Below are positions 2,175-22,087 of a stretch of 24,321 nt of DNA, piece by piece. The stretch is taken from the IMG/VR virus record IMGVR_UViG_3300030102_001761, positions 1 to 24,321 of that record; one strand, written 5' to 3'. The stretch is from a virus (taxonomy: Duplodnaviria > Caudoviricetes). The position numbers were made by a program, and so were the translations under genes. Every line of letters starts with the position of its first letter. Position 1 is the stretch's first letter. Under the pieces are notes generated by a model. The model worked only from the letters and a program-made list of their open reading frames with translations, was not told the origin of the DNA and ran no database searches.

Positions 2175-2200
2175 CTCCTATATAATAAAACATTTGTCTA
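2175..2200 (-). promoter_or_regulatory. Copy of recurring late-promoter-like motif (TAGACA-N7-TATTAT)
   Basis: Minus strand TAGACAAATGTTTTATTATATAGGAG in the 33-nt gap before the ejection genes; one of five copies. Confidence 0.55.
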
Positions 2201-3022
2201 TTATGATCCTGATTGAAACGATTCAACAATGACACCTGTTGTTCCCGTGATTGCTAATTGATAATCTGATACTGCACCCAGACATATATGATGCCAACCC
2301 GGTTGCAGGTTTTCTTTTACTATGTGGAATGAGATGTGCTGTAAGAATGCCATCTGTGCCTTCTTGCCATTCGATCTAATCCTTGTTCCCATCTCATCTA
2401 ATATCGCCCAAGATGTATCTGCTTCAGCACGATACATAGCAAAGGCATCGATGTAACTGGTAAGCCCACCCTGCTGTCCATCAGATGAACTGTTATAAAT
2501 AGAGTCTGGTATGAATGCTGGCTGGTACCAGAACTCTACTATGCAATCTGCTGACTTCTCTAGATAAAAAGAAACACCTGTCTTTGGTAGGCAGGTAATC
2601 ATCTCACCAGTAAGATATCCAGAAGCAGAACCAGAACTCTTCTCCGCAATGCGAGGATGGGACAGGTTGGTAATGAGACCATTATAAGAAGTTCCTATAG
2701 GGAATGCTAAATCGAATGGACTACCAGATGACCACGCTTCACCGTTTATTAAACTAAAATCATTACACACAGCAGCAGTTGTGCCTGAACATCCAACAGC
2801 CATGATGTCAAACTTAGATGGACCGGTCTTAGATACTTCTAGTTTCTTTAGTTCTTTAGGTCCGAAGTAGCGGTTGGTGGTACCTCGCGTAGCATTGACA
2901 TATATATCAGACGACGCTAGCCCCCTGTTAATCTCTGACCTTAACTTTTTAAAGTTTGCCTCTTGCGAAGTTGCTGTAAAGGCTTCATCATCAGACCAAG
3001 TTTTAACTCTAGTAAATGCCAT
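2201..3022 (-). CDS. Putative tail appendage protein 3 (273 aa; start corrected to ATG 3022)
   Basis: The ATG follows the TAA of the upstream gene (TAAGATG). The N-terminus TWSDDEAFTATSQEANFKKLRSEINRGL resembles phage fibre/spike anchor motifs, and the C-terminus is beta-rich. Confidence 0.55.
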   Translation of the reverse strand: MAFTRVKTWSDDEAFTATSQEANFKKLRSEINRGLASSDIYVNATRGTTNRYFGPKELKKLEVSKTGPSKFDIMAVGCSGTTAAVCNDFSLINGEAWSSGSPFDLAFPIGTSYNGLITNLSHPRIAEKSSGSASGYLTGEMITCLPKTGVSFYLEKSADCIVEFWYQPAFIPDSIYNSSSDGQQGGLTSYIDAFAMYRAEADTSWAILDEMGTRIRSNGKKAQMAFLQHISFHIVKENLQPGWHHICLGAVSDYQLAITGTTGVIVESFQSGS

Positions 3023-3023
3023 C

Positions 3024-3785
3024 TTAAGAACTCCCCGACCTACGGTCAACTGCGAATGTGCCTCGCCATCCACTCACTACTGCTACTGCATCTGCATCAC
3101 ACTTGATGGCTATCCTTGTGCCATATATAATATCATCTGCTGCTAAGATCTTAATACCTGACCAGTTGCCCGTAACAAAGTGTCTATTAGAAACCGACAT
3201 AGTAGTATCTTGATCAGAAAGAATATTAGAGTTGCCGCCGAACTGAATCTCTCCAGCAGTAGCAAAGTCAGTCCATCCACCTAATGTACCACCAGAGTTA
3301 GTGGTAGCATACTGCATCTTAACATTAATAATATCATCAGAGGCTGCGGTAACACCTGCTCCTACTTGACAGTGGATAGCAATACTAAAGTGCGCACGCA
3401 TCACATCATATTGTTTAAGTGAGTAACCAGTGTTGGTATTAAATAATTGTTCTGATGTTGCACCGGTGCTTACTACTACAGTGGTATAGGTACCTGCATT
3501 GGCGTTGTTAAAAGTATTAGTGGTGTTGAAGATAGAGCCATCAGTTGTATTAATATGGAGGATGCCGCTGACTGCTTTAGAGTTCTGTACTTGGTGACCT
3601 GTAGTAAAGGCTGTATTGGGCAATGTAAGGTTATGGCGTATGATGCCACCTTCCATAACATTTGTTTTATCTATGTCATTTGCACCTAAAGCATCCTCAA
3701 ACTTTTGCATAGTAGTATTAAGGTCTGTAGTCTCAAGGAGATCATAGTCCTTATCATATACTGTTACGCCTTCTACCTTAGCCAT
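3024..3785 (-). CDS. Putative tail appendage protein 2 (253 aa)
   Basis: Thr/Asn/Gly-rich, beta-rich ORF in the tail block; RBS GGAG; N-terminal anchor-like segment (LLETTDLNTTMQKFEDALG...GGI). Confidence 0.55.
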   Translation of the reverse strand: MAKVEGVTVYDKDYDLLETTDLNTTMQKFEDALGANDIDKTNVMEGGIIRHNLTLPNTAFTTGHQVQNSKAVSGILHINTTDGSIFNTTNTFNNANAGTYTTVVVSTGATSEQLFNTNTGYSLKQYDVMRAHFSIAIHCQVGAGVTAASDDIINVKMQYATTNSGGTLGGWTDFATAGEIQFGGNSNILSDQDTTMSVSNRHFVTGNWSGIKILAADDIIYGTRIAIKCDADAVAVVSGWRGTFAVDRRSGSS

Positions 3786-3798
3786 TGATTAATCTCCA

Positions 3799-4389
3799 TC
3801 ATCTATAGATGTTCCTAGCCCATGAGTATACAGATTTTACAGTAAAGAAGTTTGTATCTTGTCCCTGCCATCTGAAACCGTGGGGTTTAATAATAACGTT
3901 AAACACTGGGCTTCCGCTCATTATAGGAGTAAAGAAAGGAATAGTTGTTGTGTGATATCCCTTGCCTATAAAGTTTGTATCGGCAACCTTTCGTCCTGCT
4001 ATGAACAGTTCTATATTATAATAGTTTTTTAACTGGCTGGCTGCATTGCCATTGGGGGTCGACCATGCCCCTATGTTATCTATGACTAGCGTAAGTGACC
4101 CACGAAGAAATCCTTCTTTAACTCCAGTGATTGTACCTGAAGCAACTGATCCTTTACCAGCAAGCATATCATTCTGCGTAAGAGTTTGATCTGTAGTCGA
4201 ATCAACAAGAGTATAATACTTGCTCATAGGATTCATAGAGACAGCAGTATAATCTATCGATTGATCAGGCAACTCGGTATGCTGCAATCCGCCATTGATA
4301 ATATTAATATTCTCTTGTGTCTGGGCATTGAGACCTGTACCTGTGATAGCCTCGCCCTCACCCCATTGCTGACCGGGTATGATCTTCAT
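3799..4389 (-). CDS. Putative tail appendage protein 1 (196 aa)
   Basis: TAATG coupling to the nozzle gene; RBS AAGGAGG; N-terminus QWGEGEAITGTGLNAQTQENINIINGGL. Confidence 0.55.
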   Translation of the reverse strand: MKIIPGQQWGEGEAITGTGLNAQTQENINIINGGLQHTELPDQSIDYTAVSMNPMSKYYTLVDSTTDQTLTQNDMLAGKGSVASGTITGVKEGFLRGSLTLVIDNIGAWSTPNGNAASQLKNYYNIELFIAGRKVADTNFIGKGYHTTTIPFFTPIMSGSPVFNVIIKPHGFRWQGQDTNFFTVKSVYSWARNIYR

Positions 4390-6812
4390 TAGTATACCCC
4401 TCCTTGATTGTTAGCCACAGTATTAAACTTAGCCTGATAGGTCTTCAACTCGCCCTTGTATCTATAGTTAACTTTATATCCTAGCACACATACCTTCATA
4501 CCCAAGTTGAGAGCAGGTGTGATTACTGATCCCTTCTCATCTAGCACCAGACTAGCAGCATTGGTAGATGAAGTTTCTATCTGGAACTGGAAGGCAACAG
4601 CGTGTAGTGGTGCTACATCATAACGAACAGTTAACATTCTTACTGGTCCAGCAGACTCAGCCTTAGCAAACGTAGCAGAAGATCCCTGTGTCTGTGTAAG
4701 ATAAAAAGATCCATATGGTTCTCGCTCTGCATTCCTTATCATAGTAGATACAGTGCCATCACTATACTGGATTGGATATCTATCGTAGTCAATAAAACAA
4801 TTGAGTTGTGGCTTGGCTTGACCACCAGTCTCTACGTAATCTATCTCTACAGAGAGAACTTCTTTTTTATAATCATCATCGCCAAAGTCTAGCCATGCTG
4901 TAGCAAACCTAGTGTTGGGTGGTTGCCGCTCTGCATAGGTGGGTGACTCTGCTGTACCTGTAACTTTTATTCCCCACGTTGGTCTGCCACACCATACCTG
5001 CAACCCATTGTTAACATCATAGTTAATTGCATTGTCCTCATACCCAGAGATGTTAGCGATAGTTGTCTCGTAGTTAGAACCAAATAAAGTAAAGCCCTCT
5101 GGCAACTGCGTGAAGCAGGCTGCTGGCACGTTCTGTCTAACAGTCCAAGTCTTGATAGGGGCGTGGTATATGAAGCCCGTCATAGGGTCGTTAAAGCCGT
5201 CTGTGGGTAGGCTACACCAATACTCTTGGTCCCTAGTGTTATAGGTAGATGCTGCCACCTGACAGTTGATTAAGTTTGTATTGTCTAGGTATCCGCCAAG
5301 CCCATCAGAGATAGAAAGTATTTTAACTTGGTCATACTGTGGGTTGCCTGAGATTGCATAGAAACCATTCTGTCCTAGGAAGACAACACCTGTTCCCGGT
5401 ACGAACTGAATACTCTTATGTGCTATGCAACCTATGCTATCTGATATAGTGGTAAGATAAAAGCCACCTCTCTCATCTGGGATTAGAGCAAAGATGCCAC
5501 GCAGAGCAAAGATATATAATATGTTGGCTGAAGGGAAGAGCCCCGTGATCTCCCCTACCCCATAGCCAGAGATATTATAATAGTTGTCATTACCGAACTG
5601 TTCAAACCTACCAGACTCTGAATAGTAAACAGCAGTAGAGTCTGTGCCACCAGCAAGAACAAGTTTATTTCCCCATAGAGTTGCGAACCTAGTATCAATA
5701 GGCAAGGTACCAGTCTCATTAATAGTAGGCATCTCTGATGCTAGGTTAACATCAGATACTATGTCAAGATAAAAGGTCTCGCAGTTGTTGGGTATCTCAT
5801 CAACATAATAATATGTTTCCTCTGCCGGGGCTGAGGCTGGGTCTATGCTAAACAGATTTAAGTTCTTTGTTCTGTATATCCTACGGGTAAGTGTTCCCTC
5901 TGGACCTATGGGTATGTTAGTGATAGGCAGGAAGAAGCGCGAAGAGGATAAGTTAAATGATTCTGTGTTCTCTTCATCGCCACCATCACCATCCATCTGC
6001 CCTAGCCAACTAATAAGTTTGCTTGCCTCGCTTGCAGGGCTCTCACTACCAGTGTCACTTACATATGCAATCTTATACTTGTATGAACACTTAAGGTTAT
6101 GAAGTAAGTTCTTTTGTAAATCGTGAGCAAGGTCAGCATCAGTTAAGTCACCGAACTGTGCTCCCGGATCCATACCAGCAGAGTTACCGTAACCCCATAT
6201 ACCTACTGAGAATGTACCAGTCTCTGTATCGGTGGTGGTGAATGCCCAGTTGTATGTAGAATCATCAACACCACCCATAGATATTCTTCCCGGCTGGATA
6301 GGAGTGCAAGGAGGAGGTGTGACAGCATAGCCAAATGGTTCTATCCTATTGCGATTAAAGAACTTTAAAGGTCTGTTGCCGGGGATGTTAAATATGATAA
6401 CGTAGTTGCCAGCGTCAATATACTGTATGCCGGGGTCTGTTACGGATCTGTTATTGATTCCATACTCCTGCTGCACTTCCAATGGCTTAGTTAGTATGGT
6501 TCCTGTGTTGTTCTGGTTCTTAATATACTTGATTGCTGTAGGGGTTTCGTAGATTATATATCTTTCTGACCCTCCGTTCTTTTCCCATGCGTATACTGAC
6601 CAGACTACTTCTGATTCTACAAAGTTTGATGTTGCTGCTACATCTAATTCTTCATTGTAAGGTACCCATCCTCTGTCGTTAACAAAGCCCATTAGTCTGG
6701 GATCATAACGCCAGTTCTCTGCGACCCAAGCAGAGTTTTGATTTTGTGCCCTCAGCCTTCTTTCTATACCAATCAGGTTAGGCTGCTCAAATGTTCTATC
6801 TACTTTGGACAT
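4389..6812 (-). CDS. Tail nozzle/stabilisation protein (tail tubular protein B-like; P22 gp10/T7 gp12 position), 807 aa
   Basis: Size and position after the adaptor; beta-propeller-like segments (KLVLAG...VYYSESGRFEQF, EITGLF...LYIFALRGIF, IGCIAHKSI...VVFLGQNGFY); inserted YKYKIAYV..G.ES...RRIYRT module. Confidence 0.7.
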   Translation of the reverse strand: MSKVDRTFEQPNLIGIERRLRAQNQNSAWVAENWRYDPRLMGFVNDRGWVPYNEELDVAATSNFVESEVVWSVYAWEKNGGSERYIIYETPTAIKYIKNQNNTGTILTKPLEVQQEYGINNRSVTDPGIQYIDAGNYVIIFNIPGNRPLKFFNRNRIEPFGYAVTPPPCTPIQPGRISMGGVDDSTYNWAFTTTDTETGTFSVGIWGYGNSAGMDPGAQFGDLTDADLAHDLQKNLLHNLKCSYKYKIAYVSDTGSESPASEASKLISWLGQMDGDGGDEENTESFNLSSSRFFLPITNIPIGPEGTLTRRIYRTKNLNLFSIDPASAPAEETYYYVDEIPNNCETFYLDIVSDVNLASEMPTINETGTLPIDTRFATLWGNKLVLAGGTDSTAVYYSESGRFEQFGNDNYYNISGYGVGEITGLFPSANILYIFALRGIFALIPDERGGFYLTTISDSIGCIAHKSIQFVPGTGVVFLGQNGFYAISGNPQYDQVKILSISDGLGGYLDNTNLINCQVAASTYNTRDQEYWCSLPTDGFNDPMTGFIYHAPIKTWTVRQNVPAACFTQLPEGFTLFGSNYETTIANISGYEDNAINYDVNNGLQVWCGRPTWGIKVTGTAESPTYAERQPPNTRFATAWLDFGDDDYKKEVLSVEIDYVETGGQAKPQLNCFIDYDRYPIQYSDGTVSTMIRNAEREPYGSFYLTQTQGSSATFAKAESAGPVRMLTVRYDVAPLHAVAFQFQIETSSTNAASLVLDEKGSVITPALNLGMKVCVLGYKVNYRYKGELKTYQAKFNTVANNQGGVY

Positions 6813-6824
6813 CTATTGTTATCC

Positions 6825-8348: not shown

Positions 8349-8362
8349 TTACCCCGCCTCGT

Positions 8363-8400
8363 AAAAAACCCCCTAGCCCAGAACGAGCCAGACTAGGGGG
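8363..8400 (-). terminator. Rho-independent terminator after the capsid/decoration genes
   Basis: Minus strand CCCCCTAGTCTGG-CTCGTT-CTGGGCTAGGGGG-TTTTTT: 13-bp stem with G-U pairs plus U6. Confidence 0.85.
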
Positions 8401-8429
8401 AGTTTGCCCTCAAAGGAGGGCATTATATA

Positions 8430-8900
8430 TTAACTGAAGAGTCCGAACACCCAAACGTCAGCCTTGTCACTCGAAGGAGCCTCAAGGGTCTGCGCCACCG
8501 GAGGAACTAGATCATTAGTCCCAGCCGCTTGGCATCGACCAGCAGTCCCCGAAGGAACCACCGCCACACCAGCACCCGCTGCATCAGCAACGTTAGCGCC
8601 TTCGGCGTAGCCTTTGATAACAACTTCGCAGAGGTCATCAGCAGCAGCGTCTGTACCCGAACCATTGTGAGCAATCATAACACCGATTGCAACTTTGGAA
8701 CCAGCACCACCAGAGTTTGCCTTCTGGATTTTAACAACCCGGTCAGACCCGGTCACGGCAGAGTCAGCAACCTGAAACGCAACGAAGTCACCGATTGCAA
8801 TAGCACCAGTGGCGAAGAAGCGCTCAGTCACACGACGGTTGGAAGGACCAACATCCGTACTCGGAGCATCAAGGTATTGAATAAGAGATGAAGTAGCCAT
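8430..8900 (-). CDS. Capsid decoration/cement protein (156 aa; start corrected to ATG 8900)
   Basis: TAATG overlap with the capsid stop; Ala/Gly/Val-rich with AIAIGDFV...AIGV...A..D..EV...G pattern typical of decoration proteins; GC-rich codon usage like the capsid gene. Confidence 0.7.
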   Translation of the reverse strand: MATSSLIQYLDAPSTDVGPSNRRVTERFFATGAIAIGDFVAFQVADSAVTGSDRVVKIQKANSGGAGSKVAIGVMIAHNGSGTDAAADDLCEVVIKGYAEGANVADAAGAGVAVVPSGTAGRCQAAGTNDLVPPVAQTLEAPSSDKADVWVFGLFS

Positions 8901-9949
8901 TAGAATGTCTCCCCGTTTACAAGCAACGCGCTTGAACCAAGATGTGAAGCACACAGACCACCCATGAACAGGATGCGACCATAACGTCCATCGTAACCCG
9001 AGATGTCCTCGAAGCCGGTGAACTTAAAGTCAGCGTCTCCGTGAACGTGCAGGTAGATAGCGTCAAGGTTAAGCATTGCCATCGTGTTGGAACCAGCGGA
9101 ACCAGCACCAGCAGCAACGTCCATCGCTCGCTCAGGCATAATCACACCGGACGAGAACTGAAGGCTCTGAACACCAGAGGCATCAAGAGTCTTCGCATCA
9201 ACATAACGCTCCTGCGCAAACAGCGCCTGACGATAGTTGACATACCCGTTGGGCGAGGCAAGGGTCAGGTGGAAACGACCACCGTCACCGTCGGCAGGCA
9301 TAAGCGTAGAAGCCTTGGCTTCCAACTCATACATAGCCGCAATACCGTTAGCCGAGAAGTCGTTCGACGCATTGGCGAACTGGTTCTGGAGACCAACAGC
9401 AAGACCGTGAGAAAGACCACCCATCGTGTTGCCCTGCGAAGCAGGAGCAGCATCCTCAAGGAAGCCAGTCGACACGCCCTGTCCAGCCGTGTTACCGTTA
9501 ATCGTACCAAGCGTAGCAAGGTCGGTCACAGTGTTACCAACAATCTGTTGGTTAATCTTACGCATCAGCGCAGACAATGCATTTTTATATCGCACCTCAG
9601 CAAGGTCAATAATGGCACGCTCGCCAGAGTTCTCAGCCTCTTCACGACCTGAAATAAGAACGGGCATCGCAACTCGCATCCAGTCATACTCAGCCTGCTG
9701 GGTGGCATCACGGACGCTAAGGTCCAGTGCTTCCCAACCGCTTGAGAGAACCGTCAACTGCGAGTGTTCCTCGGTTTCCACGGGAACAACCAACTTGTAG
9801 CCGCCATCAAAGGTGCGGATCTTACCAAGTTTCTTGGATACGCTGAGGAAGGGAGTCGTCTCGAAGAGCGCCTCACTGACCTCATCCTCAATCTCGTAAA
9901 TAGTCGTGGAGAGAATATCATTACTAATTCCAGTCAATGTAATAGACAT
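8900..9949 (-). CDS. Major capsid protein (HK97-fold expected), 349 aa
   Basis: Size; N-terminal LSTT....DEV.EALFETTPFL and GG.KLVVPV, ISGREEAENSG patterns; strong codon bias; own leader and promoter motif; followed by a decoration gene and terminator. Confidence 0.85.
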   Translation of the reverse strand: MSITLTGISNDILSTTIYEIEDEVSEALFETTPFLSVSKKLGKIRTFDGGYKLVVPVETEEHSQLTVLSSGWEALDLSVRDATQQAEYDWMRVAMPVLISGREEAENSGERAIIDLAEVRYKNALSALMRKINQQIVGNTVTDLATLGTINGNTAGQGVSTGFLEDAAPASQGNTMGGLSHGLAVGLQNQFANASNDFSANGIAAMYELEAKASTLMPADGDGGRFHLTLASPNGYVNYRQALFAQERYVDAKTLDASGVQSLQFSSGVIMPERAMDVAAGAGSAGSNTMAMLNLDAIYLHVHGDADFKFTGFEDISGYDGRYGRILFMGGLCASHLGSSALLVNGETF

Positions 9950-10110
9950 GATTTCAATCCTTTATTAAGTTTAAGTTTCTATAGTAAAAAGTTTAACGTT
10001 TATCCATACGACTACTGAGGGTTATTTCAGGTGGATAATCTGAAGTCCTATTTATTCGTGCCGTCTTGAGACTGTAGATAAGTTATCCTATGTGGGTCAA
10101 ACCTACTGCT
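9950..10110 (-). promoter_or_regulatory. Structured ~160-nt 5' leader of the major capsid gene
   Basis: Non-coding gap with two hairpins sharing an AC/AUAAC internal loop (10074-10106 and 10018-10049), then an A/U-rich stretch and RBS AAGGA. Confidence 0.55.
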
Positions 10111-10134
10111 TCATATAATATAATACTTTGTCAA
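10111..10134 (-). promoter_or_regulatory. Copy of recurring late-promoter-like motif (TTGACA-N8-TATTAT)
   Basis: Minus strand TTGACAAAGTATTATATTATATGA directly upstream of the capsid leader. Confidence 0.6.
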
Positions 10135-10136
10135 CC

Positions 10137-10298
10137 TTACAGGGTATTAAGTTTAAGATCAATCTCTCTGAGCAGTAATCTAATTTCAAAGATCTCTTTA
10201 TTGATTGACTCTCTGTCCAGATAGAACTTACTGAGTTCTTTATATTCTATCTTATCAAGATGAGACTCAACTTTATTTATCTTTTCTTTAAGTTTCAT
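10137..10298 (-). CDS. Hypothetical 53-aa coiled-coil-like protein (below ORF-track cutoff)
   Basis: ATGA overlap with the upstream stop; MKLKEKINKVESHLDKIEYKELSKFYLDRESINKEIFEIRLLLREIDLKLNTL*; fills the gap exactly up to the capsid promoter motif. Confidence 0.65.
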   Translation of the reverse strand: MKLKEKINKVESHLDKIEYKELSKFYLDRESINKEIFEIRLLLREIDLKLNTL

Positions 10299-10642
10299 TT
10301 TTCTTTATCCTTCAGTGGTTGGTATTCAATGTAAGTTAAGTAGTGACCTGAGTCTGTATTGGCACGGTAGGCTTCTTTGAAAGAAGCCCAGATAGAACCT
10401 CCTGCTTTACAGATCATTAACAACCCAACCTCAACATCATACTTATTGGAAACAGGTAAGTAAATCCAGTCCTTTTTATAGTTATGCCAAGTTAGTTCCT
10501 TACAGAATTCTTCTATTTGTTCAGGTGTATATCTAATAAACTGTCGTGTCCTAAGTGAACCCATAATGACTCCAGTTTCTTTTTTTGCCCAGAGTGGGTG
10601 TGGTAAATCCTCCCTCTCCATATACCTTATAGGAATTACCAT
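10295..10642 (-). CDS. Hypothetical protein, 115 aa
   Basis: Only long ORF in the interval, divergent from the sigma-like gene; no recognisable motif; start uncertain. Confidence 0.6.
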   Translation of the reverse strand: MVIPIRYMEREDLPHPLWAKKETGVIMGSLRTRQFIRYTPEQIEEFCKELTWHNYKKDWIYLPVSNKYDVEVGLLMICKAGGSIWASFKEAYRANTDSGHYLTYIEYQPLKDKEK

Positions 10643-10678
10643 TCAGTTCTATACTTTTATTTTCTTTTTATTTTGCTC

Positions 10679-10707
10679 TTGACAATCCAGAACCTTTATG
10701 GTATATT
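10679..10707 (+). promoter_or_regulatory. Canonical sigma70-type (early) promoter
   Basis: TTGACA (10679-84), 17-nt spacer, TATATT (10702-07), with an extended -10 TG and a T-rich UP-like tract upstream. Confidence 0.8.
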
Positions 10708-10788
10708 ATATATATTGTGAGAATAAATGTTCTATTGGGATTATTAGAAACTATATATTATAGATGGCAAGGAATAGGAGACCTTACT

Positions 10789-11418
10789 ATGAACGAAGAG
10801 ATTACAGATTTAATATTTAATGAAGGTGGGGTCGCTAGAATCTATTGCTGGAGTCCTTATAGCAAGTATAAACCCTCACAAACTTTAATGAATTACAGAC
10901 GGATTTCTGAGGCAGAGGCTTGGGAATCTACAGATAATGTTTTAATGACTGTCAACGCAGCCTTCTATGCTGATAAGGCAGAGACCCTAATGGAATGGAA
11001 TCCAGAGAAGAGTACCCTGCGTACTTGGATTACTAACCACTTTAATTGGTGGTACTTAGAATGGATGAAAAAACAAATCAACTATGACAAGAATGTTAAG
11101 AAAAGAATCAATGGCTTTTACGATGAAGAAATCAACGAGGCTGAAGTTCAACAATCAATTGAAAAACAAAAGGATGATATGATGTCAGAAGATGAGAATG
11201 AAAAACTAAACAGAATCTTTATGTTTGTCCAGACTCGTGATAAGGCTCAACGGTTTATCTTTTTAGAGATGACTGGAATGGCTAAACTGCAATACAGTGC
11301 GGACAAGAAACGAATCTTAAACTTTCCGGGTAGGGATAACATCTCAGTTCCCGGCTGGTATAAGCGTAGAAAGAAGTTCATTGCTGAACTAAAGGCGTAC
11401 TGCAATGGCAACTACTAA
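10789..11418 (+). CDS. Divergent sigma-factor-like protein (209 aa; start corrected to ATG 10789)
   Basis: RBS AGGAG 8 nt upstream. Region-2.3/2.4-like WNPEKSTLRTWITNHFNWWYLEWMKKQ, an acidic linker, and a degenerate region-4-like C-terminus (DKAQRFIFL...ISVPGWYKRRKKFIAELKAY). Confidence 0.55.
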   Translation: MNEEITDLIFNEGGVARIYCWSPYSKYKPSQTLMNYRRISEAEAWESTDNVLMTVNAAFYADKAETLMEWNPEKSTLRTWITNHFNWWYLEWMKKQINYDKNVKKRINGFYDEEINEAEVQQSIEKQKDDMMSEDENEKLNRIFMFVQTRDKAQRFIFLEMTGMAKLQYSADKKRILNFPGRDNISVPGWYKRRKKFIAELKAYCNGNY

Positions 11419-11447
11419 AAAACCCCTGCCTCGGAATGAGACAGGGG
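11417..11447 (-). terminator. Rho-independent terminator (minus strand)
   Basis: CCCCTGTCTC-ATTCC-GAGGCAGGGG-TTTTTT. The stem is complete (one U-G pair) and followed by U6 only on the minus strand. Confidence 0.85.
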
Positions 11448-11501
11448 CTTAGTTGAATAGGAGACCAACCGATTAAAGTTGAAAGAGACAACAACGTCTC
11501 T
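11417..11501 (-). ncRNA. Candidate ~85-nt small RNA with an anti-Shine-Dalgarno loop
   Basis: Bounded by a promoter-motif copy and a terminator. Three hairpins: AGAGAC/GUCUCU, GGUUGG-UCUCCUAU-UCAACU, and the terminator. It has 11-12 nt perfect complementarity to two RBSs in the window. Confidence 0.65.
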
Positions 11502-11522
11502 ACTAATAGAATCTATTGTCAA
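11499..11522 (-). promoter_or_regulatory. Copy of recurring late-promoter-like motif (TTGACA-N8-TATTAG)
   Basis: Minus strand TTGACAATAGATTCTATTAGTAGA immediately 5' of the candidate sRNA. Confidence 0.55.
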
Positions 11523-11637
11523 TCAGATGGAGGGGAAATGTCGTTTAGTAGTAGTGAAATAAAAAAGTTTTTGAGTATTGAAACCCGGTCTCGTCTACCG
11601 TATCCAACAGACGAACTTAATAATAGGAGTAATAGAG

Positions 11638-12105
11638 ATGACAACAGTACAAGCAAAAAGGTGTCCAAAGTGCGACACATTAAAAGAAGTAAAAGAGTTT
11701 AATAAACACCGCAACAGTTCTGATGGGCTTCAGGGCTACTGTAGAACCTGCTCTAGCAAGGCGGGTAAGGAATGGTATAAAGCCAATCGCCAAGTTGATC
11801 CTTATGTGTATAAGGTTACCTGCCCAGACCATAAGTATTATTATGGGTCCTCGACCATTCACCTTGATGATCGCATAAGGCTACACTTCAGCAACCATCG
11901 AGTCTGTGCCTTAGCCCAGCACGTAACAGGGTCTGGCTGGACCGCTGAAGACTGTGAGGTTCGTGTTATAGGCACAGGCGATCTTAATACCGTAAGGTAT
12001 CAGGAAGCAATGCTTATCCAAAGCAATCTGGATAACGAGAAGTGCCTGAATGTAAGAGGACCAGACAGGAAGTGGATTCCAACTGAGTTTGCTGATGGAG
12101 ATTGA
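11638..12105 (+). CDS. Zinc-finger + GIY-YIG endonuclease (155 aa; start corrected to ATG 11638)
   Basis: N-terminal CPKC...DGLQGYCRTC; GIY-YIG motifs YVY-x8-YYYGSS, R-x3-H (RIRLH), E (YQEAMLI) and N (CLN); RBS AATAGGAG. Confidence 0.8.
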   Translation: MTTVQAKRCPKCDTLKEVKEFNKHRNSSDGLQGYCRTCSSKAGKEWYKANRQVDPYVYKVTCPDHKYYYGSSTIHLDDRIRLHFSNHRVCALAQHVTGSGWTAEDCEVRVIGTGDLNTVRYQEAMLIQSNLDNEKCLNVRGPDRKWIPTEFADGD

Positions 12106-12277
12106 TCACATCAACAACTGCTTCTGGTTGCATTGGTCGGCTTCCTACCACCTAGCAATATATGAATCTTCCACAGATACAAATGAGTTAGCCGACCATT
12201 ACACTGCTTACAAAGATGCTCAATACTTTTTAGACGAGGCTCTTAAAAGAATGATTGAGTTAGACACTTACCACTAG
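12095..12277 (+). CDS. Hypothetical protein, ~60 aa
   Basis: ATG at 12095 overlaps the end of the nuclease gene; helical-looking; its TAG forms part of the next RBS. Confidence 0.55.
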   Translation: MEIDHINNCFWLHWSASYHLAIYESSTDTNELADHYTAYKDAQYFLDEALKRMIELDTYH

Positions 12278-12286
12278 GAGAAGCAA

Positions 12287-12547
12287 ATGAAAGACAAAGA
12301 CATTAAAACACCCTTAGCCGGGTCATTAGGAGAAGAGTATGCGAATGAACTTAGAGTTGTTTATGATAACAGTATTGTTGATAATGGGAACCGTTATGTG
12401 TTCTTTACCACACCGCGAGTTCCAAACAGAGTTGCCGGAACCAGAGTTACCTTGGAAAACCACAAGGCTTCAGCAGATCGAGACGGACCTCACGTTAATG
12501 AGAATCCGAGTGGAACAATTGGAACAGAGGATAGAGGAGAAGATTAA
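12287..12547 (+). CDS. Hypothetical protein, 86 aa (overlaps the next ORF out of frame)
   Basis: RBS TAGGAGAAG upstream of ATG; polar, low-structure sequence. Confidence 0.4.
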   Translation: MKDKDIKTPLAGSLGEEYANELRVVYDNSIVDNGNRYVFFTTPRVPNRVAGTRVTLENHKASADRDGPHVNENPSGTIGTEDRGED

Positions 12548-12551
12548 GTAA
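12339..12551 (+). CDS. Hypothetical membrane-anchored coiled-coil protein, 70 aa
   Basis: RBS TAGGAGAAG; N-terminal hydrophobic segment (LFMITVLLIMGTVMC), Pro-rich linker, C-terminal heptads (RLQQIETDLTLMRIRVEQLEQRIEE). Confidence 0.55.
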   Translation: MRMNLELFMITVLLIMGTVMCSLPHREFQTELPEPELPWKTTRLQQIETDLTLMRIRVEQLEQRIEEKIK

Positions 12552-13053
12552 GGGGTAGGGTTTTCATAATGATCTGCTTTGGCAAGAAGTTCCAGCAATA
12601 GTAACTACTACTGAACGTGATCTTATTATTATCCCTACCGTCTGGAGAAATAAACTTCATCCTTCTATCAAACATCAAGAGTTGTAAGTCCTTGTCTTTG
12701 AACAACTGTTTAGGTGCCGCATCATTCAACCAAGTATTGGTCATGATTAAAGCAAACGGTTTATTAAAAGACAAGGCACGCTCAAAGAACTTTCTTTTAT
12801 TGGTGAAAGGTGGATTGGATACAATCACATCCCACTTCTCTGGTTCATATGTAAAGAAGTCTTGCCCAGCATCTATGTGTGAGAACACAACTTGATTCTG
12901 TTTAGAGATTTGTTTAACGAACTCACTGTCCTTTTTATCAAAGGGACACCAGACGATTGCATCTTCAGGGATAAACTCTAGTATGGGTGCAACACCTAAA
13001 GCAGGTGTATAACACTCATCATTGTTTCCCTTTGAGTATAGAACCTTATTCAT
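12544..13053 (-). CDS. Putative N6-adenine (amino) methyltransferase, small phage type, 169 aa
   Basis: DECYTP, VWCPFD (SAM-binding motif I-like), GQDFF and catalytic motif IV DVIVSNPPF; ATGA-coupled to the upstream gene. Confidence 0.75.
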   Translation of the reverse strand: MNKVLYSKGNNDECYTPALGVAPILEFIPEDAIVWCPFDKKDSEFVKQISKQNQVVFSHIDAGQDFFTYEPEKWDVIVSNPPFTNKRKFFERALSFNKPFALIMTNTWLNDAAPKQLFKDKDLQLLMFDRRMKFISPDGRDNNKITFSSSYYCWNFLPKQIIMKTLPLT

Positions 13054-13241
13054 TCAGATCTCTTCTGATAACCATCACGATACCAGCCCTCCCCCTTCAG
13101 CGCAAAACTGGAGGGGGAGATTTTCTTTTTGGTCTCGGAATTACAGAAAGGACAGGGAGGTGGAGGATCTTCGTATCTCTGCATCACCTCTACCTCGCCC
13201 TTACAGCATTCGTTTAAACACCGAAACTCATAGATAGGCAT
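13050..13241 (-). CDS. FmdB-family zinc-ribbon protein, 63 aa
   Basis: MPIYEFRC...C...CPFC...KKISPSSFALKGEGWY..GY signature; TAATG-coupled to the scaffold gene. Confidence 0.8.
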   Translation of the reverse strand: MPIYEFRCLNECCKGEVEVMQRYEDPPPPCPFCNSETKKKISPSSFALKGEGWYRDGYQKRSE

Positions 13242-14020: not shown

Positions 14021-14031
14021 TTATGTTCTCC

Positions 14032-14583: not shown

Positions 14584-14597
14584 AATAATATTCTCCT

Positions 14598-16807: not shown

Positions 16808-18309
16808 TACCTAAATCTCCTCGATGATTTTAATGGATGTGCGGTCGTAATGGGTCTATGCTTAGAGGGACGTCGTTTCTTAACTATCATTCTGTCCCAA
16901 TCAGTCTTCGGTGTCTGAACACTTTGTAAACCACGTAGTGCTAAAGCGTAAGCAATACACCGATCATCGTGGTAGTTGTTCCCTTCAGGGTGGTGCGGTG
17001 CCCTACCCTTGTCATCAATCACGAGGTTTCTCATCTCGCTGAATGTAATGGAATCAATGTTCTCAATAATTCTTTCTTGCAGAGAGGACTTGAACATATC
17101 ATAAAGTTTAATCTTACTCTTCTGCGTGGTAGTAAACGGAACGTAGTTAGAGAAACCAAACCCATCAAAGATTTCTTTAACTGCTGCCCCGTGGTTGTTA
17201 AGTTCAAAAGTTACTGGTGCCTTGTAGGCTCTAGCGATTTGGATTACCTCCTCACTGAAAGCCTTGATAGATAGTTGATTGGAACTGATGATTGCTACTG
17301 GGCTATACGAGATCTTGTCTAGAACGTAAGCAACAGAGAAATCTCTTCCGACACCGGACGCAGGATCAAAACCCACGCTGTAACGATTCCGATCATTATA
17401 GGGTTGAAGAACAACCCGTAGTTTATTTTGTACATCAATAACTTCCAAAGGATCCAGATCTTCATGGCTAAAGAAGTTCTGATCATCCAGAGTATATGCC
17501 TCTTCCAAGTTCGCCGGGTACTCTCGGCGGAAGAGACTTTCTGATTTGATTTCTTCAAGTTTACACCGTCGCCAATAGATCTGTTCATCAGTGAGATTGT
17601 ACAGTTCTTTAAGCGTTTCTTCATTGGAATAAAATGTCAACCCACCTTTTGGTAGTTCCTTCCTGTAATCTGGGAAGGTAAACCAAGGCATCATTATTAC
17701 TTTCCAAGAATCATTATACTGAGCATCCATCGCAATCTGGTGCAGGGCATCACCCCAGTAGTTGGGGGTGCTTTCCACTACGACGTTGGCATCATTAGCA
17801 GATGCTAACAAAGATGCTAATACTTCATCAGCCTTATCATAGAAGGCAAACTCTGATAGATGAGCACCGTTAAATGTATACCCTCTGTCCGTAGCGTCTG
17901 ACTGTGCCGAGAAGGCACCTAGAGAGGCTCCTGTGGCTTCAAAGGTTATCTCATCCCTCTTAATAGTAGAAGCCCGTCTAAGGGGCTTAGGAAGCGTATT
18001 AAGAAATCTCTTGTCTATATCAAGCAACTCTGTAGCAGAACGTAACTTGTTAGACATAACAGCAAACTTTAAAGGATCGGCTGCACAGTAAGCCCGCCAA
18101 AAGAAGTAGGACCTACAAAGAGTAGACGAACCAAGTTGCCGTGCCTTTACAACAGCAACCCTTTTATTATTTTCCAGTGTATTAAGTAATCTAACTTGCT
18201 CTGGATTGATAACGTGACCAAAGGTTTTCAACTTCGCGTTCTTATCTTTAATCTTAAGACGCGGGATGAACTCGTGTGGGTCTAGTATAATGTCACTTAG
18301 GTTCGACAT
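16807..18309 (-). CDS. terL: Terminase large subunit, 500 aa
   Basis: Walker A VVKARQLGSST, Walker B GAHLSEFAF, coupling motif VVESTPN, RNase H-like nuclease acids GFDPASG..RDFS and HDDR. Confidence 0.93.
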   Translation of the reverse strand: MSNLSDIILDPHEFIPRLKIKDKNAKLKTFGHVINPEQVRLLNTLENNKRVAVVKARQLGSSTLCRSYFFWRAYCAADPLKFAVMSNKLRSATELLDIDKRFLNTLPKPLRRASTIKRDEITFEATGASLGAFSAQSDATDRGYTFNGAHLSEFAFYDKADEVLASLLASANDANVVVESTPNYWGDALHQIAMDAQYNDSWKVIMMPWFTFPDYRKELPKGGLTFYSNEETLKELYNLTDEQIYWRRCKLEEIKSESLFRREYPANLEEAYTLDDQNFFSHEDLDPLEVIDVQNKLRVVLQPYNDRNRYSVGFDPASGVGRDFSVAYVLDKISYSPVAIISSNQLSIKAFSEEVIQIARAYKAPVTFELNNHGAAVKEIFDGFGFSNYVPFTTTQKSKIKLYDMFKSSLQERIIENIDSITFSEMRNLVIDDKGRAPHHPEGNNYHDDRCIAYALALRGLQSVQTPKTDWDRMIVKKRRPSKHRPITTAHPLKSSRRFR

Positions 18310-18550
18310 TGGGGTCCTTCTTCTTTACAGACACCAGCCACTCATCGACTGGAGAAGAACCATCTTCACCGACCACCGTTAGACCACGATATAAAACAAG
18401 TAGTGAGATTAAGTCTTGAGGCTTGAAGCCTTTAAAGTCTTCATCAGCAAACTTAGATGTGACATCGTATATCAAACACCTAACTGCTTCTGCTATATCA
18501 CCACTTTCAAGAGCCTTTAAGCCCTTTGTTATTTTCTTTCTTCGTGCCAT
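18293..18550 (-). CDS. Candidate terminase small subunit, 85 aa
   Basis: Immediately upstream of and overlapping TerL; basic N-terminus, helical core. Function from position only. Confidence 0.45.
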   Translation of the reverse strand: MARRKKITKGLKALESGDIAEAVRCLIYDVTSKFADEDFKGFKPQDLISLLVLYRGLTVVGEDGSSPVDEWLVSVKKKDPNVEPK

Positions 18551-18612
18551 TGTTCCATCCGGTGTTATTCTTTTCCCGTAAAGGTATTCATAGAAATCTT
18601 TATGGGAGAAGG

Positions 18613-18810
18613 CTAATCTTCTGGTTCGCTATTAATAGGAAGATTTGTCAATACTTCCTCAAGAGAAGGAGGGGAACACTTCTTCATTAACTTTTTTAAG
18701 TAACGTTCGATGTTCCCCCCTGTGATTACCCTGCGTGCGACACGTTCGAGGTTTCTCCTCTCTTTGTTTCTCTTATGATACTCTCTTTGTTTTTTCTCAT
18801 AAGTGCTCAA
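18613..18810 (-). CDS. Hypothetical basic protein, 65 aa (TTG start)
   Basis: Overlaps the end of the sigma-R4 gene; Arg/Lys-rich helix (KKQREYHKRNKERRNLERVARR); GAGGA upstream. Confidence 0.5.
   Translation of the reverse strand: MSTYEKKQREYHKRNKERRNLERVARRVITGGNIERYLKKLMKKCSPPSLEEVLTNLPINSEPED
18628..18651 (-). promoter_or_regulatory. Copy of recurring late-promoter-like motif (TTGACA-N8-TATTAA)
   Basis: Minus strand TTGACAAATCTTCCTATTAATAGC about 80 nt upstream of the TerS/TerL/portal block, inside the 3' end of the 65-aa ORF. Confidence 0.55.
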
Positions 18811-19201
18811 TCTTAATGTTTCCTCGCAACTTCTTCAGTGCTTTTGCGTAGCACTTGCGAACAGATTCGTGTGAACAATTCTCTAAGCCTGCAACATAAC
18901 GAAGGGAAGCATCGTCCTCTGCAATCGCTAAGAATACTCTCATCTCTTTCTCTGTAAGCAAACCTTCTATCTCATCCAAGAGATTATTATATCTTTTATG
19001 ACTGTCTTCTCTTTCAATGTATGTGGCTTCGGGACTAGGGAAAGAGTTAAGCCAACTGTCATTAGCAGAGATATACCTAACATAATCATACATCTCTAAG
19101 TTTAATACTTCTTGATATGTCTCAGCCTGCTCTAGTTTGTCTGAGTATGTTACTCTTGCAGGTCTCATGGTCTTACTACCGTACTTTCTTTTGCTCATCA
19201 T
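18797..19201 (-). CDS. Stand-alone sigma-70 region-4 HTH protein (133-134 aa; start at ATG 19201 or 19198)
   Basis: LLTEKEMRVFLAIAEDDASLRYVAGLENCSHESVRKCYAKALKKLR is a clear region-4 pattern; no region 2 recognised; RBS ATAGGAGACC. Confidence 0.8.
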   Translation of the reverse strand: MMSKRKYGSKTMRPARVTYSDKLEQAETYQEVLNLEMYDYVRYISANDSWLNSFPSPEATYIEREDSHKRYNNLLDEIEGLLTEKEMRVFLAIAEDDASLRYVAGLENCSHESVRKCYAKALKKLRGNIKIEHL

Positions 19202-19243
19202 ATGGTCTCCTATATGTAGATTTACAATATCTACACAATAAGT

Positions 19244-19272
19244 AGTATACAACAAACTGAACGGTAATTCAA
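19244..19272 (-). promoter_or_regulatory. Sigma70-type (early) promoter of the sigma-R4 gene
   Basis: Minus strand TTGAAT (19272-67), 17-nt spacer, TATACT (19249-44). Confidence 0.65.
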
Positions 19273-19283
19273 GTTGACATTTA

Positions 19284-20375
19284 TTATTCAGGTATGTTAG
19301 GGTAAAACTCCTCTAAGTGTCCAATCACTCGCTTTTTGTAATCCGCTCTCTCATCCTGATCCGGTTTCTGCACGCGGATTATGTAGTCTGCGATACGCCC
19401 CCGCGCTCCGGGACTAACGATGTCAAGGTCAGCCTGCGGTGCGAAGTTTCTTCTGTACAACTGATACATTGTAGTGACAGCACCTTGGAAAGCAGGATCG
19501 GGGTCAGTATTAAGTCTGTAGGTTATTTCATCAGTAAGCCTGTTTTGCCCTTCATCTGTCTGGAGATCGCCCATATCTAAACCACGGTCCATAAAGAATG
19601 CTTGTAGTACCGCCGAGTCATCTGGATTCCTACGCATATAATTTAAAGCGTCTTTGATTGTTCGTCCTTCTATCTGTGTAGCACCGACGGCACCGAAGAG
19701 CGGATCTCTAGGTCTATAGGGCGTGAGCAGTCCCTCTGCCTCTAGACGCCTTTTTATCTCTCTTTGACCTTCTGGTGTGGTAGGATCTAAACCCCGCGCT
19801 ACACGTCTTAGATCTTTCTCAAGCGGCTCGGATATTCTAGGAGCAGTTCTGGGCATAGCATCAAACTCGTCCTCTAAAAGATTAGGTGATCTAGGATCCA
19901 AGCCAGCCGCACCTTGGCGTAGCATTATGCCCGGATCTCCCTCCCGACCTAAGTAAGATTCTTGCTCACCTACCATCTGAAGTTCAGCAATTAATCTAGA
20001 CTTCTCTGGATCTAGTCTGGGGATGTGCTTAGCAAACTCTGCTGTAAAATCACCCACTTGCCTGAACAAAGGAACTGAAGGATATGGAACATCCATAACT
20101 TTAGGTTCGTCAGCATAAGTTTCTAGAGAAGGTGTCGGTGCGTCTGGGACAAGTACATCCTCTGTGCCTGTGCGTAAAACAGTACCCTCAATAAAAGTAT
20201 CGTATGCTGAACTTTCTGGTACCATAAAAGGAGAATCAAAAACAGGCTCTGGTAAGACTTCGAGATTTGGTCCTTCGTCTGCTGGTCGCCGGATATATCT
20301 AATAACCGGAGCGTTGGGATCTACTTCCTCTTCCTCTTCTTCCTCACCACCAAATAGAAAGTCTAAGATGCCCAT
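19284..20375 (-). CDS. Putative lysozyme-fold/lytic transglycosylase-like protein with acidic N-terminus, 363 aa
   Basis: SLT-like motif I (MVGEQESYLG) and motif II (GAVGATQI...T..D) separated by an unusually long segment; follows a holin-like gene. Confidence 0.4.
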   Translation of the reverse strand: MGILDFLFGGEEEEEEEVDPNAPVIRYIRRPADEGPNLEVLPEPVFDSPFMVPESSAYDTFIEGTVLRTGTEDVLVPDAPTPSLETYADEPKVMDVPYPSVPLFRQVGDFTAEFAKHIPRLDPEKSRLIAELQMVGEQESYLGREGDPGIMLRQGAAGLDPRSPNLLEDEFDAMPRTAPRISEPLEKDLRRVARGLDPTTPEGQREIKRRLEAEGLLTPYRPRDPLFGAVGATQIEGRTIKDALNYMRRNPDDSAVLQAFFMDRGLDMGDLQTDEGQNRLTDEITYRLNTDPDPAFQGAVTTMYQLYRRNFAPQADLDIVSPGARGRIADYIIRVQKPDQDERADYKKRVIGHLEEFYPNIPE

Positions 20376-20377
20376 AC

Positions 20378-20566
20378 TTACGCCCCCTTAAGTTTTACAA
20401 TCGCATCAATGACAGACTGACCGCCAATATACAATGCGCTGATGGTAACCCAGTCACCTGAAGTTAAATAACCAGTAGCCGCCAGCCCTGTGGCTGTTGC
20501 CCATACAAGCAACTTACGAGACAGGATCTTTTCCAATCCCTTATCGAGCAGAGCCTTAGCCATCAC
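20378..20566 (-). CDS. Holin-like small membrane protein, 62 aa
   Basis: SRKLLVW followed by two hydrophobic segments ending YIGGQSVID; ATGA coupling to the upstream gene. Confidence 0.6.
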   Translation of the reverse strand: MMAKALLDKGLEKILSRKLLVWATATGLAATGYLTSGDWVTISALYIGGQSVIDAIVKLKGA

Positions 20567-20862
20567 ATCGCTCTCAATCTGGAGGCTTCACCATCCCAGA
20601 GTTCATCAACATCTTCCACACATTTATCATATGTCTCTTCTACGCACACTACAAAGCGGCTCCAGCCTTCCTCCCAGTCAATCCAGTCTAGTTTACCATA
20701 TGTTCCGTTGGGTCCTAGAAACAGTGCTCTCGCTCCATCTACGTGGAACTCACAAGAAGCAGTTAAAGATTTGCCCCACAGGGTTCCTTCAACATCAAAC
20801 TCAGCAAGACGGTTTGCTGCCAGTGCTGGATCAACAGCGTCTAATATAAACAATACTCTCAT
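20563..20862 (-). CDS. Hypothetical acidic protein, 99 aa
   Basis: RBS AAGGAG; tightly packed between neighbours. Confidence 0.65.
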   Translation of the reverse strand: MRVLFILDAVDPALAANRLAEFDVEGTLWGKSLTASCEFHVDGARALFLGPNGTYGKLDWIDWEEGWSRFVVCVEETYDKCVEDVDELWDGEASRLRAM

Positions 20863-20872
20863 AACATTCTCC

Positions 20873-21628
20873 TTATGCTGTTACTGTGGTGCCGTTAGGG
20901 ATCAATCTGTAGTAGATCTTGGCTTTGATAGTAGCAGCCGCCGCGTTGTCTGTAAAGACAGCAAAGGCAATCTGGTTATAGTTATCATCACCAGTGTCAG
21001 GTGCAAGAGTGATCGCTGAGTTATTAGATTTATTATTGTCCTCGAACTCATATGAATCACCGGGATCTTGGATCTGGACAATGCGAGAGATTGATTTAAG
21101 AACTGTTGAACCATTAGCAATTTGGAACTGTGGCTTCATCCACATTTGGTAGTTGGTGTGCTCTGTCGTATCGGAACCGGTTGAGGTTGCAGTTCTTGAG
21201 AAGATAGTTGGCTTTGGTCCAGACGACGCAGAGTCAAATACCATGCCACCAAGTTCCATATTATGCCCACTATCACCAAAGTTATCGGCATCACCATCAG
21301 TCAACCCCAATCCTATGTTTACATGATTCTCTGTAGTAGCAGTGGTAGTCTGGATCCTAAACTCAATATCATAGTTCTGCTGCTTAGCCGCTGCTAGAAG
21401 GACGATAGATCCACTCTTAGTTCGTGGGCGCCAACACCAGACTGCTCCAGCGGAGGCGACGGTTTGAGCCTTAGAACCTGCAAGGCTAATAACCCACCCG
21501 TCAGTGCTATTATAAGTAACAGCAGAAGCAAGCACGCTATTCGGATCAGCACTAGTTTCAGCGGTTGAGGGCTGAAGTTCCAGCCACTGAGATGTGTCTT
21601 TGGGACCAAATACATTTTTAATAGCCAT
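20873..21628 (-). CDS. Hypothetical beta-rich, probably virion-associated protein, 251 aa
   Basis: RBS AAGGAG; Ser/Thr/Asn/Ala-rich with alternating beta-strand patterns. Confidence 0.6.
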   Translation of the reverse strand: MAIKNVFGPKDTSQWLELQPSTAETSADPNSVLASAVTYNSTDGWVISLAGSKAQTVASAGAVWCWRPRTKSGSIVLLAAAKQQNYDIEFRIQTTTATTENHVNIGLGLTDGDADNFGDSGHNMELGGMVFDSASSGPKPTIFSRTATSTGSDTTEHTNYQMWMKPQFQIANGSTVLKSISRIVQIQDPGDSYEFEDNNKSNNSAITLAPDTGDDNYNQIAFAVFTDNAAAATIKAKIYYRLIPNGTTVTA

Positions 21629-21642
21629 TGTTAGGGTTCTCC

Positions 21643-22053
21643 TTAAGCGTGTGCATCATACGTAAGATACGCAGACGCAGCCGTAAAGGTGCCCGCATCG
21701 CCCTTGATGAAAGCATAAAGTGTGGTAGCCTCTCCGCTACCGGGAACTCCTATAGCCCAACCAGCAGTGCCCTTAGTGGCAGTGGTCGTGCCAACAGTAA
21801 TGTCAGCCTCAGACTCAGGGATGATGATCTCATCTCCCGCTGCATCCGAACAGATGTACATAGTAATCTTTGTGGTGCTGGATATCGAACTGCACTTAAC
21901 GTACAGGTAATGAAAGTTTAAAGCAGCATCAGTTGCTGCCTTGGGAATTGAAAAGGTTAAAACCTTTGATGTCGAATATGACGTCCCAACAGATGAAGGT
22001 GTTGTGGACGATGTTGCTAATGATGGCAGTTCTACTGCTCTAACGGTAGGCAT
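21643..22053 (-). CDS. Hypothetical Thr/Ser/Ala-rich beta protein (136 aa; start corrected to ATG 22053)
   Basis: RBS GAGGAG 7 nt upstream; first gene after a promoter-motif copy. Confidence 0.65.
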   Translation of the reverse strand: MPTVRAVELPSLATSSTTPSSVGTSYSTSKVLTFSIPKAATDAALNFHYLYVKCSSISSTTKITMYICSDAAGDEIIIPESEADITVGTTTATKGTAGWAIGVPGSGEATTLYAFIKGDAGTFTAASAYLTYDAHA

Positions 22054-22064
22054 ATGATCTCTCC

Positions 22065-22087
22065 TCATATATTAAATGTTTTGTCAT
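22065..22087 (-). promoter_or_regulatory. Copy of recurring late-promoter-like motif (ATGACA-N7-TAATAT)
   Basis: Minus strand ATGACAAAACATTTAATATATGA in the intergenic gap. Confidence 0.5.

Follow-up and report, generated by a model that had tools for sequence, protein, structure and literature searches.

The DNA analysed here, which we call the window, is a stretch of 24,321 nucleotides (nt) from a tailed phage (positions 1 to 24,321 of record IMGVR_UViG_3300030102_001761). It holds the virion region of a podophage, that is, terminase, portal, a scaffold-like gene, capsid, an SU10-type adaptor and ejection-like genes, all of them on the minus strand. A first-pass annotation, made from the letters alone, had described five copies of a short motif ahead of these genes, and had read them as late promoters in which a -35-like box is drawn close to a sigma70-like -10 box. 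We wish to determine what these sites are and which protein reads them. The late-promoter reading of the five sites is well supported, and we consider it highly probable that they are late promoters of some kind; their second box, however, is not the one that was annotated. Throughout, positions within a site are counted along the coding (minus) strand from index 0, the G of GACA. The five sites are as follows.

2179..2200, minus strand: motif site ahead of the ejection-protein genes (TAGACA 2200-2195, TTT 2189-2187, predicted start ~2179)
10112..10134, minus strand: motif site ahead of the 185-nt capsid leader (TTGACA 10134-10129, TTA 10123-10121, predicted start 10113-10112)
11501..11522, minus strand: motif site ahead of a small RNA (TTGACA 11522-11517, TTC 11511-11509, predicted start ~11501)
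18630..18651, minus strand: motif site 99 nt before terS (TTGACA 18651-18646, TCC 18640-18638, predicted start ~18630)
22066..22087, minus strand: motif site ahead of the accessory structural/holin block (ATGACA 22087-22082, TTT 22076-22074)

All five strings lie at the minus-strand coordinates that the first-pass annotation had given, in the gene context it described, and four of the five carry a G at index 20, that is, 20 nt past the G of GACAA. At the ejection site the Shine-Dalgarno (SD) sequence begins at the predicted start itself, ~2179, with the ATG at 2167; at the accessory-block site it begins at ~22066, with the ATG at 22053. The annotated pattern, GACAAWN{5,6}TAWTA, has five matches in the window, all five on the minus strand, as compared with a mean of 0.14 and a maximum of 2 in shuffled sequence; none of 100 shuffles reaches five. 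Because the pattern was derived from these same sites, its significance is overstated. A weight matrix built independently, from 18 capsid-leader sites in other genomes, finds nine window matches of at least 9 bits, all on the minus strand, of which five are the sites listed above and four lie within open reading frames (ORFs). When a matrix of 48 curated sites (the window's own included) is combined with a non-coding filter, the window matches are exactly the five sites.

The conserved element across the clade

The relatives of the window phage come from marine collections, and together they form a clade of small uncultured marine podophages of ~30 kb. We searched orthologous upstream regions in this clade for GACAA alone, leaving the downstream bases unconstrained. 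GACAA is present in 18 of 29 capsid upstream regions, 16 of them with TTT at index 9-11; in 10 of 12 ejection-gene regions and 6 of 20 adaptor regions, all with TTT; in all six terS regions (three TTT, three TCC); and in 3 of 4 accessory-block regions. Motif-bearing capsids make up a single branch (18 of 30 rows; SH-aLRT 96 in a quick tree), and the motif is absent from the sister group at 67-68% identity, a motif-lacking subclade that includes L049-L053 and L065.

Aligned, the 48 curated sites read WWGACAA, followed at fixed spacing by T's at index 9, 10 and 11 (46, 47 and 44 sites). A C-poor A/T stretch occupies index 12-18, ending in a T at index 18 in 34 sites, and purines follow at index 19-23. 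The TTGACA-like hexamer has T in 40 of the 48 sites, then T in 29 or A in 17, then G in 45, and A, C and A in 48 each, the GACA part being set by the selection of sites. Further upstream, no column from -30 to -4 exceeds 0.23 bits when the genomes are pooled. The conserved element is therefore WWGACA-N5-TTT(T)R, of fixed geometry, at the heads of virion operons. In one subclade, the ATGACATT subclade (L016-L019, L059-L063), both A's after GACA are replaced by T's, and the hexamer, the five bases and the T run are kept. Units of motif, short RNA and terminator also occur in related genomes, so that the motif heads stand-alone short RNAs as well as genes. A scan of the collection with one motif variant returned 121 loci, mostly unrelated in appearance. 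At L093:8530-8560, in the divergent region between an extracytoplasmic-function (ECF) sigma gene and a late gene, two copies of the motif overlap on opposite strands, 14 nt apart.

The two halves of the annotated consensus, GACAAW-N5/6-TAWTA, fare differently in this comparison. Its GACA half is conserved, but TAWTA, at variable spacing, is found in only 15 of the 48 clade sites. Nor does TAWTA behave as a sigma70-like -10 box: hexamers of the TAnnnT type at spacings of 7-9 nt occur in 16 of 48 sites, as compared with 15.0 +/- 3.0 when indices 12-18 are shuffled (P 0.43), and at the canonical spacings of 16, 17 and 18 nt they occur in 1, 0 and 0 of the 48. The conserved second element is the T run, at its fixed distance from the hexamer.

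We also tried other known signals against these sites. The sigma54 consensus has an invariant GG at -25/-24 and GC at -13/-12, each of which is found in 0 of 48 sites in the aligned register. A symmetric dimer site is rejected because the symmetry is limited to AAA/TTT, with outer pairs in 5, 20 and 2 of the 48. An archaeal pair of transcription factor B recognition element and TATA box would place the start past the ATG at genes with bacterial SD spacing. The reading of GACAAW as a TATAAT-like -10 box survives only in the form of an ECF promoter, discussed below.

Where transcription begins

Several features of the sites point to a start at index 19-20. Of 22 gene-proximal sites, 17 have an SD that begins at index 18-20; in the others it begins at 13, 15, 16 or 24 or is missing. 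All five adaptor-gene sites examined stand directly behind an intrinsic terminator and, since they do, the adaptor mRNA must begin at the motif and still keep its SD. A pyrimidine-purine step is found at index 19 in 33 of the 48 sites and at index 20 in a further 8, and the purine-rich start at 19-20 is present also at sites without a following SD. Over 32 leaders and small RNAs, the mean pairing probability rises from 0.36-0.45 at index 12-18 to 0.60-0.68 at index 19-25, to which composition may contribute. A start at index 19-20 is favoured also because a helix-turn-helix that reads TTGACA as duplex would keep the box outside the transcription bubble. The more likely start, as judged from these sequence features, is thus the purine 19-20 nt after the G, which would put TTGACA at about -21 to -16. 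The -35-like box would then lie much closer to the start than usual, as the first-pass annotation had proposed, with a shift of about 13-14 nt and not the 10 nt of one helical turn. A start at index 23-24, as implied by TAWTA, is unsupported, because it would remove the SD at most gene-proximal sites.

The position of sites behind terminators, and the stand-alone short RNAs that the element heads, make a promoter the likely reading, rather than an element acting in RNA. In the window itself, the adaptor gene is preceded by a strong terminator at 8349-8400 that no motif follows (the corresponding regions of 6 of 20 relatives carry one); because of this motif-less terminator, the window's adaptor gene would need read-through. 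The capsid and terS leaders (window 9950-10113 and 18551-18630) are structured, and small hairpins starting GGAC or GGCAC recur in relatives; they are possibly conserved cis-regulatory RNA.

A stand-alone sigma-4 protein

Just upstream of terS, with only one short ORF between, lies a gene for a small protein that resembles region 4 of sigma factors.

18797..19201, minus strand: stand-alone sigma-region-4 protein, 134 amino acids, encoded upstream of terS, a candidate for both reader and late activator (profile and fold matches)
19244..19272, minus strand: canonical sigma70-type match ahead of the sigma-4 gene (TTGAAT-17-TATACT, 9/12; consensus match only)

The sigma-4 protein has weak sigma matches in PHROG and Pfam, and 21 of 21 members of its family match TIGR02937, all below that model's cut-off. 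Foldseek gave no match for it at E 0.001 or better. Residues 57-135 nevertheless fold as sigma4 (Z 10.2, root-mean-square deviation 2.1, 73 aligned; model pLDDT 79). The sigma70-type matches ahead of the gene are similar in relatives.

The distribution of this gene follows that of the motif. Of five records that are near-complete or large, four have it, and the fifth, a 55.7-kb record (G004), has neither the gene nor any motif sites; at some of the corresponding places G004 has, by eye, canonical sigma70-type matches. All 20 loci with the sigma-4 gene, in about nine sequence groups, carry the motif 101-105 nt before terS. Ten partial records were also searched, with the gene found in one; these are fragments, so that absence from them is uninformative.

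The recognition helix of the protein retains the equivalents of sigma70 E585 and R588; in sigma70 itself, the preference for G at -33 is relaxed by E585Q and by R588H (PMC2613000). One lineage has Q at both positions, and in it the G of the motif is replaced by T in 3 of 10 non-coding matches, as compared with 0 of 34 elsewhere. Any base other than G is found there in 4 of 10 matches, versus 2 of 34 (Fisher p 0.018), and the three T-bearing sites of the Q lineage are non-homologous. The sigma4 fold and the co-occurrence with the motif support the first-pass proposal of a phage-encoded sigma-region-4 factor, and the stand-alone sigma-4 protein is the best candidate for the reader of the motif.

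The ECF-like sigma factor

The window encodes a second sigma-like protein, on the opposite strand, which is a rival reader or a possible partner.

10789..11418, plus strand: ECF-like sigma factor, 209 amino acids, rival reader or partner (fold matches)
10679..10707, plus strand: canonical sigma70-type match ahead of the ECF-like gene (TTGACA-17-TATATT with TG, 11/12; the scan's best)

The top fold matches of the ECF-like protein are sigma factors (Z about 7), and its halves each align to sigma domains at Z 5-7, scores too low to settle a helical fold. Neither Foldseek (at E 0.001 or better) nor Pfam nor PHROG returned a match; the Atlas neighbours of the protein are sigma families. ECF proteins are only ~20% identical between genomes that share the motif. 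Furthermore, the family and the motif come apart in both directions: a member of the ECF-like family is present in G004, which is without motif sites, and in the L227/L012 lineage the motif persists alongside an ECF gene that goes undetected by the family profile; the N-terminal half of that ECF protein seems, by eye, unrelated. The ECF gene thus appears decoupled from the motif, which tracks the sigma-4 gene better, and this comparison favours the sigma-4 protein as reader. Among close relatives (P0102-P0105, window 10789-11418) the N- and C-terminal halves of the ECF-like sigma seem to have been shuffled, and the protein is 72-77% identical where adjacent core genes are 96-98% identical.

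A small RNA behind one of the sites

The site at 11522 lies ahead of a predicted RNA.

11416..11501, minus strand: predicted small RNA of ~85 nt, ending in an intrinsic terminator (fold z -6.1)

This small RNA has no Rfam match. No RNA dataset was listed as covering window 8900-12600, and three RNA runs from its sample or study yielded no matches, which speaks neither for nor against expression. Its segment 11467-11455 is complementary to the ribosome-binding site (RBS) of the ECF-like gene over 12 nt and to that of the sigma-4 gene over 11 nt, and these RBS matches are its two longest in the window; it is also complementary to the first early gene. Across seven genomes in five lineages, pairing of the small RNA with the cognate sigma-4 RBS ranks 2/33, 2/38, 6/29, 19/37, 1/28, 4/19 and 1/39, where the ranks are unfiltered for accessibility. 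The paired sequences vary by lineage, and for 6 of 7 RBSs the cognate RNA is the best or within 0.3 kcal of it. Like that of the window, small RNAs in relatives (L093:6741-6830, L096:10364-10430, L097:400-570) carry a lineage-specific stretch complementary to the RBSs of early genes and of the sigma-4 gene, and the orientation of the small RNA relative to the late strand varies between genomes.

A proposed mechanism and its alternatives

The observations above can be assembled into an activator-dependent late promoter, with its TTGACA box near -21 to -16 read by the sigma-4 protein. Under this scheme, both sigma-like proteins would be made early, from host sigma70 promoters. The helix-turn-helix of the sigma-4 protein would then bind TTGACA with the register that sigma70 region 4.2 uses, but at the place usual for sigma region 3, a place that an ECF holoenzyme would leave free. 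Melting would begin at the T run (about -10 to -8), by way of ECF region 2 or of the activator's conserved N-terminal part, and the RNA would begin at the purine 19-20 nt past the G. The late small RNA may then block translation of the activator, closing a negative feedback. Taken whole, we regard this reading as evenly poised between right and wrong. A more specific form of it we put forward tentatively, and hold to be on the unlikely side: the sigma-4 protein would be half of a sigma factor, or a miniature one, that docks at about -20 and opens the T run together with ECF region 2 or with its own aromatic-rich N-terminus, without normally placed sigma70-type -10 and -35 elements, and that is silenced by the late small RNA.

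Several points weigh against the activator scheme. A pyrimidine-purine step occurs also at index 12-13, where the first purine past the T run falls in 45 of the 48 sites, and one type of site has its SD at index 13 and its ATG at 25. The pattern by which the 48 sites were selected fixed GACA and two of the T positions, and many of the sites are kin. The records that lack both gene and motif amount to one near-complete record with two phage gene sets, and the E-to-Q covariation comes from a single lineage, whose ECF sigma differs too. No melting determinant was identified in the sigma-4 protein. As for the feedback, the match between small RNA and sigma-4 RBS is weak in G001 (the rank of 19/37, which becomes 2/37 with the accessibility filter), and of these two RBSs in the window, that of the ECF gene pairs better.

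In the alternative that survives best, the promoter has no -35 box: region 2 of the ECF-like sigma would recognise TGACAAA as the -10 element, the T run would serve as discriminator, RNA would start at index 12-13, and the likeness to TTGACA would be coincidental. SigmaE has a -10 motif, (T/C)GGTCAAAA, a discriminator of 5-6 nt and a purine start (PMC1312014), and the close likeness of TGACAAA to this motif counts against the activator scheme; from TGACAAA to the purine after the T run, which is the index 12-13 purine of those 45 sites, the distance is 6-7 nt, near the sigmaE spacing. Such a start would give leaders of 18-19 nt ahead of the start codon, it agrees with the empty upstream columns, an ECF-like gene is found wherever the early module is observed, and phiEco32 gp36 provides a precedent (PMC12276001). 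However, a motif that stays the same while the ECF proteins diverge to ~20% identity is hard to square with this reading, as are the L227/L012 lineage, whose ECF gene escapes the family profile, and the motif-less G004, which has a family member. The subclade with T's for both A's after GACA, its hexamer and T run unchanged, also argues against it, and the E-to-Q covariation is left unexplained. An ECF-type -35 element 15-19 nt upstream of the -10 motif was not found, either in the pooled columns (at most 0.23 bits) or, by eye, as a sequence common to the five window sites. We consider an ECF -10 element rather unlikely.

The sigma-4 protein could instead be a repressor acting over these sites as polar operators, with the small RNA antagonising it to form a switch. 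Mycobacteriophage stoperators are polar operators of this kind. The same co-occurrence, covariation and RNA pairing apply to a repressor, and the sigma-4 gene has its own sigma70-type promoter match. Yet the sites lack an overlapping sigma70 promoter (spacing of 16-18 nt in 1 of 48), for which reason this reading needs another positive factor; no integrase was recognised among the ORFs scanned in the near-identical contig G005, and the pairing of the small RNA with the first early gene fits a shut-off of early functions. We judge a repressor to be improbable.

A pairing of TTGACA with a sigma70-type TAWTA 7-8 nt downstream, as first annotated, would start RNA ~23-24 nt after the G and would use region 2 of host sigma70 together with a phage factor. 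The five window sites fit such a compressed geometry, distant relatives have TACTAT equally far from the capsid leader, and the late promoters of P1 are a precedent (PMC3152322). Against it stand the chance-level hexamer count given above (16/48 versus 15.0 shuffled), the scarcity of a T four bases past the first A (12 of 39 sites), and the loss of the SD at sites behind terminators; this geometry is quite improbable. Least probable by our estimate, and very improbable indeed, is an RNA-level signal (a processing site or translation enhancer) within read-through late transcripts, which would fit the distance of 29-35 nt between the G and the start codon, seen at 20 of the 21 sites that have an SD-like 4-mer, but not the motifs 100-185 nt from starts or before non-coding RNAs, the strong terminators that precede sites, or a -35-type hexamer that covaries with a helix-turn-helix, which is a signature of duplex DNA.

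The phage and its records

The contig G005 (L102, L103) is near-identical to the window and, since its ends overlap by 166 bp, the genome is a circle of ~31.7 kb. DNA polymerase, primase, helicase and integrase were not recognised among the G005 ORFs scanned (of a 1743-amino-acid protein, the last 493 amino acids only). Capsid identity to the nearest named phages is 25-27%, and no relatives of the capsid protein were found in GTDB genomes, which leaves no host genome. The record G004 (L099-L101) carries two virion gene sets, both complete and oppositely oriented, and is probably two related phages joined during assembly; at its capsid promoter, TGACA...TGTCA palindromes overlap a sigma70-type match. 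Between the scaffold and capsid genes (window 12544-13053, and the same region in relatives) lies a hypervariable stretch with many DNA methyltransferases and HNH/GIY-YIG endonucleases.

Comparison with known systems

The 17-bp distance between -35 and -10 contacts is set by the positions of sigma domains 4 and 2 on RNA polymerase. If the activator scheme is true, a detached sigma4 would read a -35 consensus ~14 bp closer at initiation, and repositioning of the lambda Q type would be extended to the selection of start sites. The circuit would be compact as well, consisting of a 22-bp promoter, a 134-amino-acid activator and an 85-nt repressor RNA. The sites also provide a map of late control for an uncultured marine phage clade, together with a residue-to-base prediction, namely that E to Q relaxes G. 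Literature searches, covering few subscription papers, returned no account of the motif or of the clade. The first-pass statement that no promoter class of such geometry had been described is nevertheless too strong, as P1 and lambda below demonstrate.

The LtrA family (Sigma70_r4), with RinA, ArpU and LtrC, resembles the present system in having a gene for a small sigma-region-4-like protein just upstream of terS (PMC3753634, PMC3152322, PMC13123087) and in its predicted activation of packaging and virion genes (PMC3753634). Its members differ in that they bind repeats in tandem, located well upstream of a single terS promoter that has a host -10 box (PMC13123087); for example, the binding sites span -76 to -32 for Alt and -107 to -42 for phi13 Ltr (PMC13123087). 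Here, by contrast, a single TTGACA lies near the predicted -20 of five to eight separate promoters, and a sigma70 -10 box is absent. We noticed no tandem repeats upstream of the terS promoter by eye, no dedicated repeat search having been made.

P1 late promoters combine a sigma70 -10 hexamer with a palindromic box. Like the present sites they are several in number, and their activator box, bound by Lpa, is centred at -22 (PMC3152322); unlike them, as far as the predicted mechanism goes, they require host SspA (PMC3152322). In the window phage the box is an asymmetric -35 consensus, and the candidate reader has a sigma4 fold. In the lambda Q loading complex, sigma region 4 sits on a -35-like site immediately upstream of region 2, with region 3 displaced (PMC9388147), but there the protein is host sigma70 in a paused elongation complex (PMC9388147), whereas here a separate phage protein is predicted to act at initiation. 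The ECF-like sigma gp36 of phiEco32 and sigmaE of Escherichia coli offer a short motif near -12, and the sigmaE -10 resembles TGACAAA (PMC12276001, PMC1312014); both, however, also need -35 contacts (PMC12276001, PMC1312014), and no -35 element is seen here. The middle promoters of T4, served by MotA/AsiA, likewise have a phage factor that reads a box nearer than -35, but their MotA box has its centre at -30, and a strict sigma70 -10 element lies 12 bp away (PMC2988021). By analogy with these systems, the motif is best described as a variant of the activator-dependent phage late promoters, new in its predicted wiring, which resembles an LtrA-type system with a P1-like position of the box.

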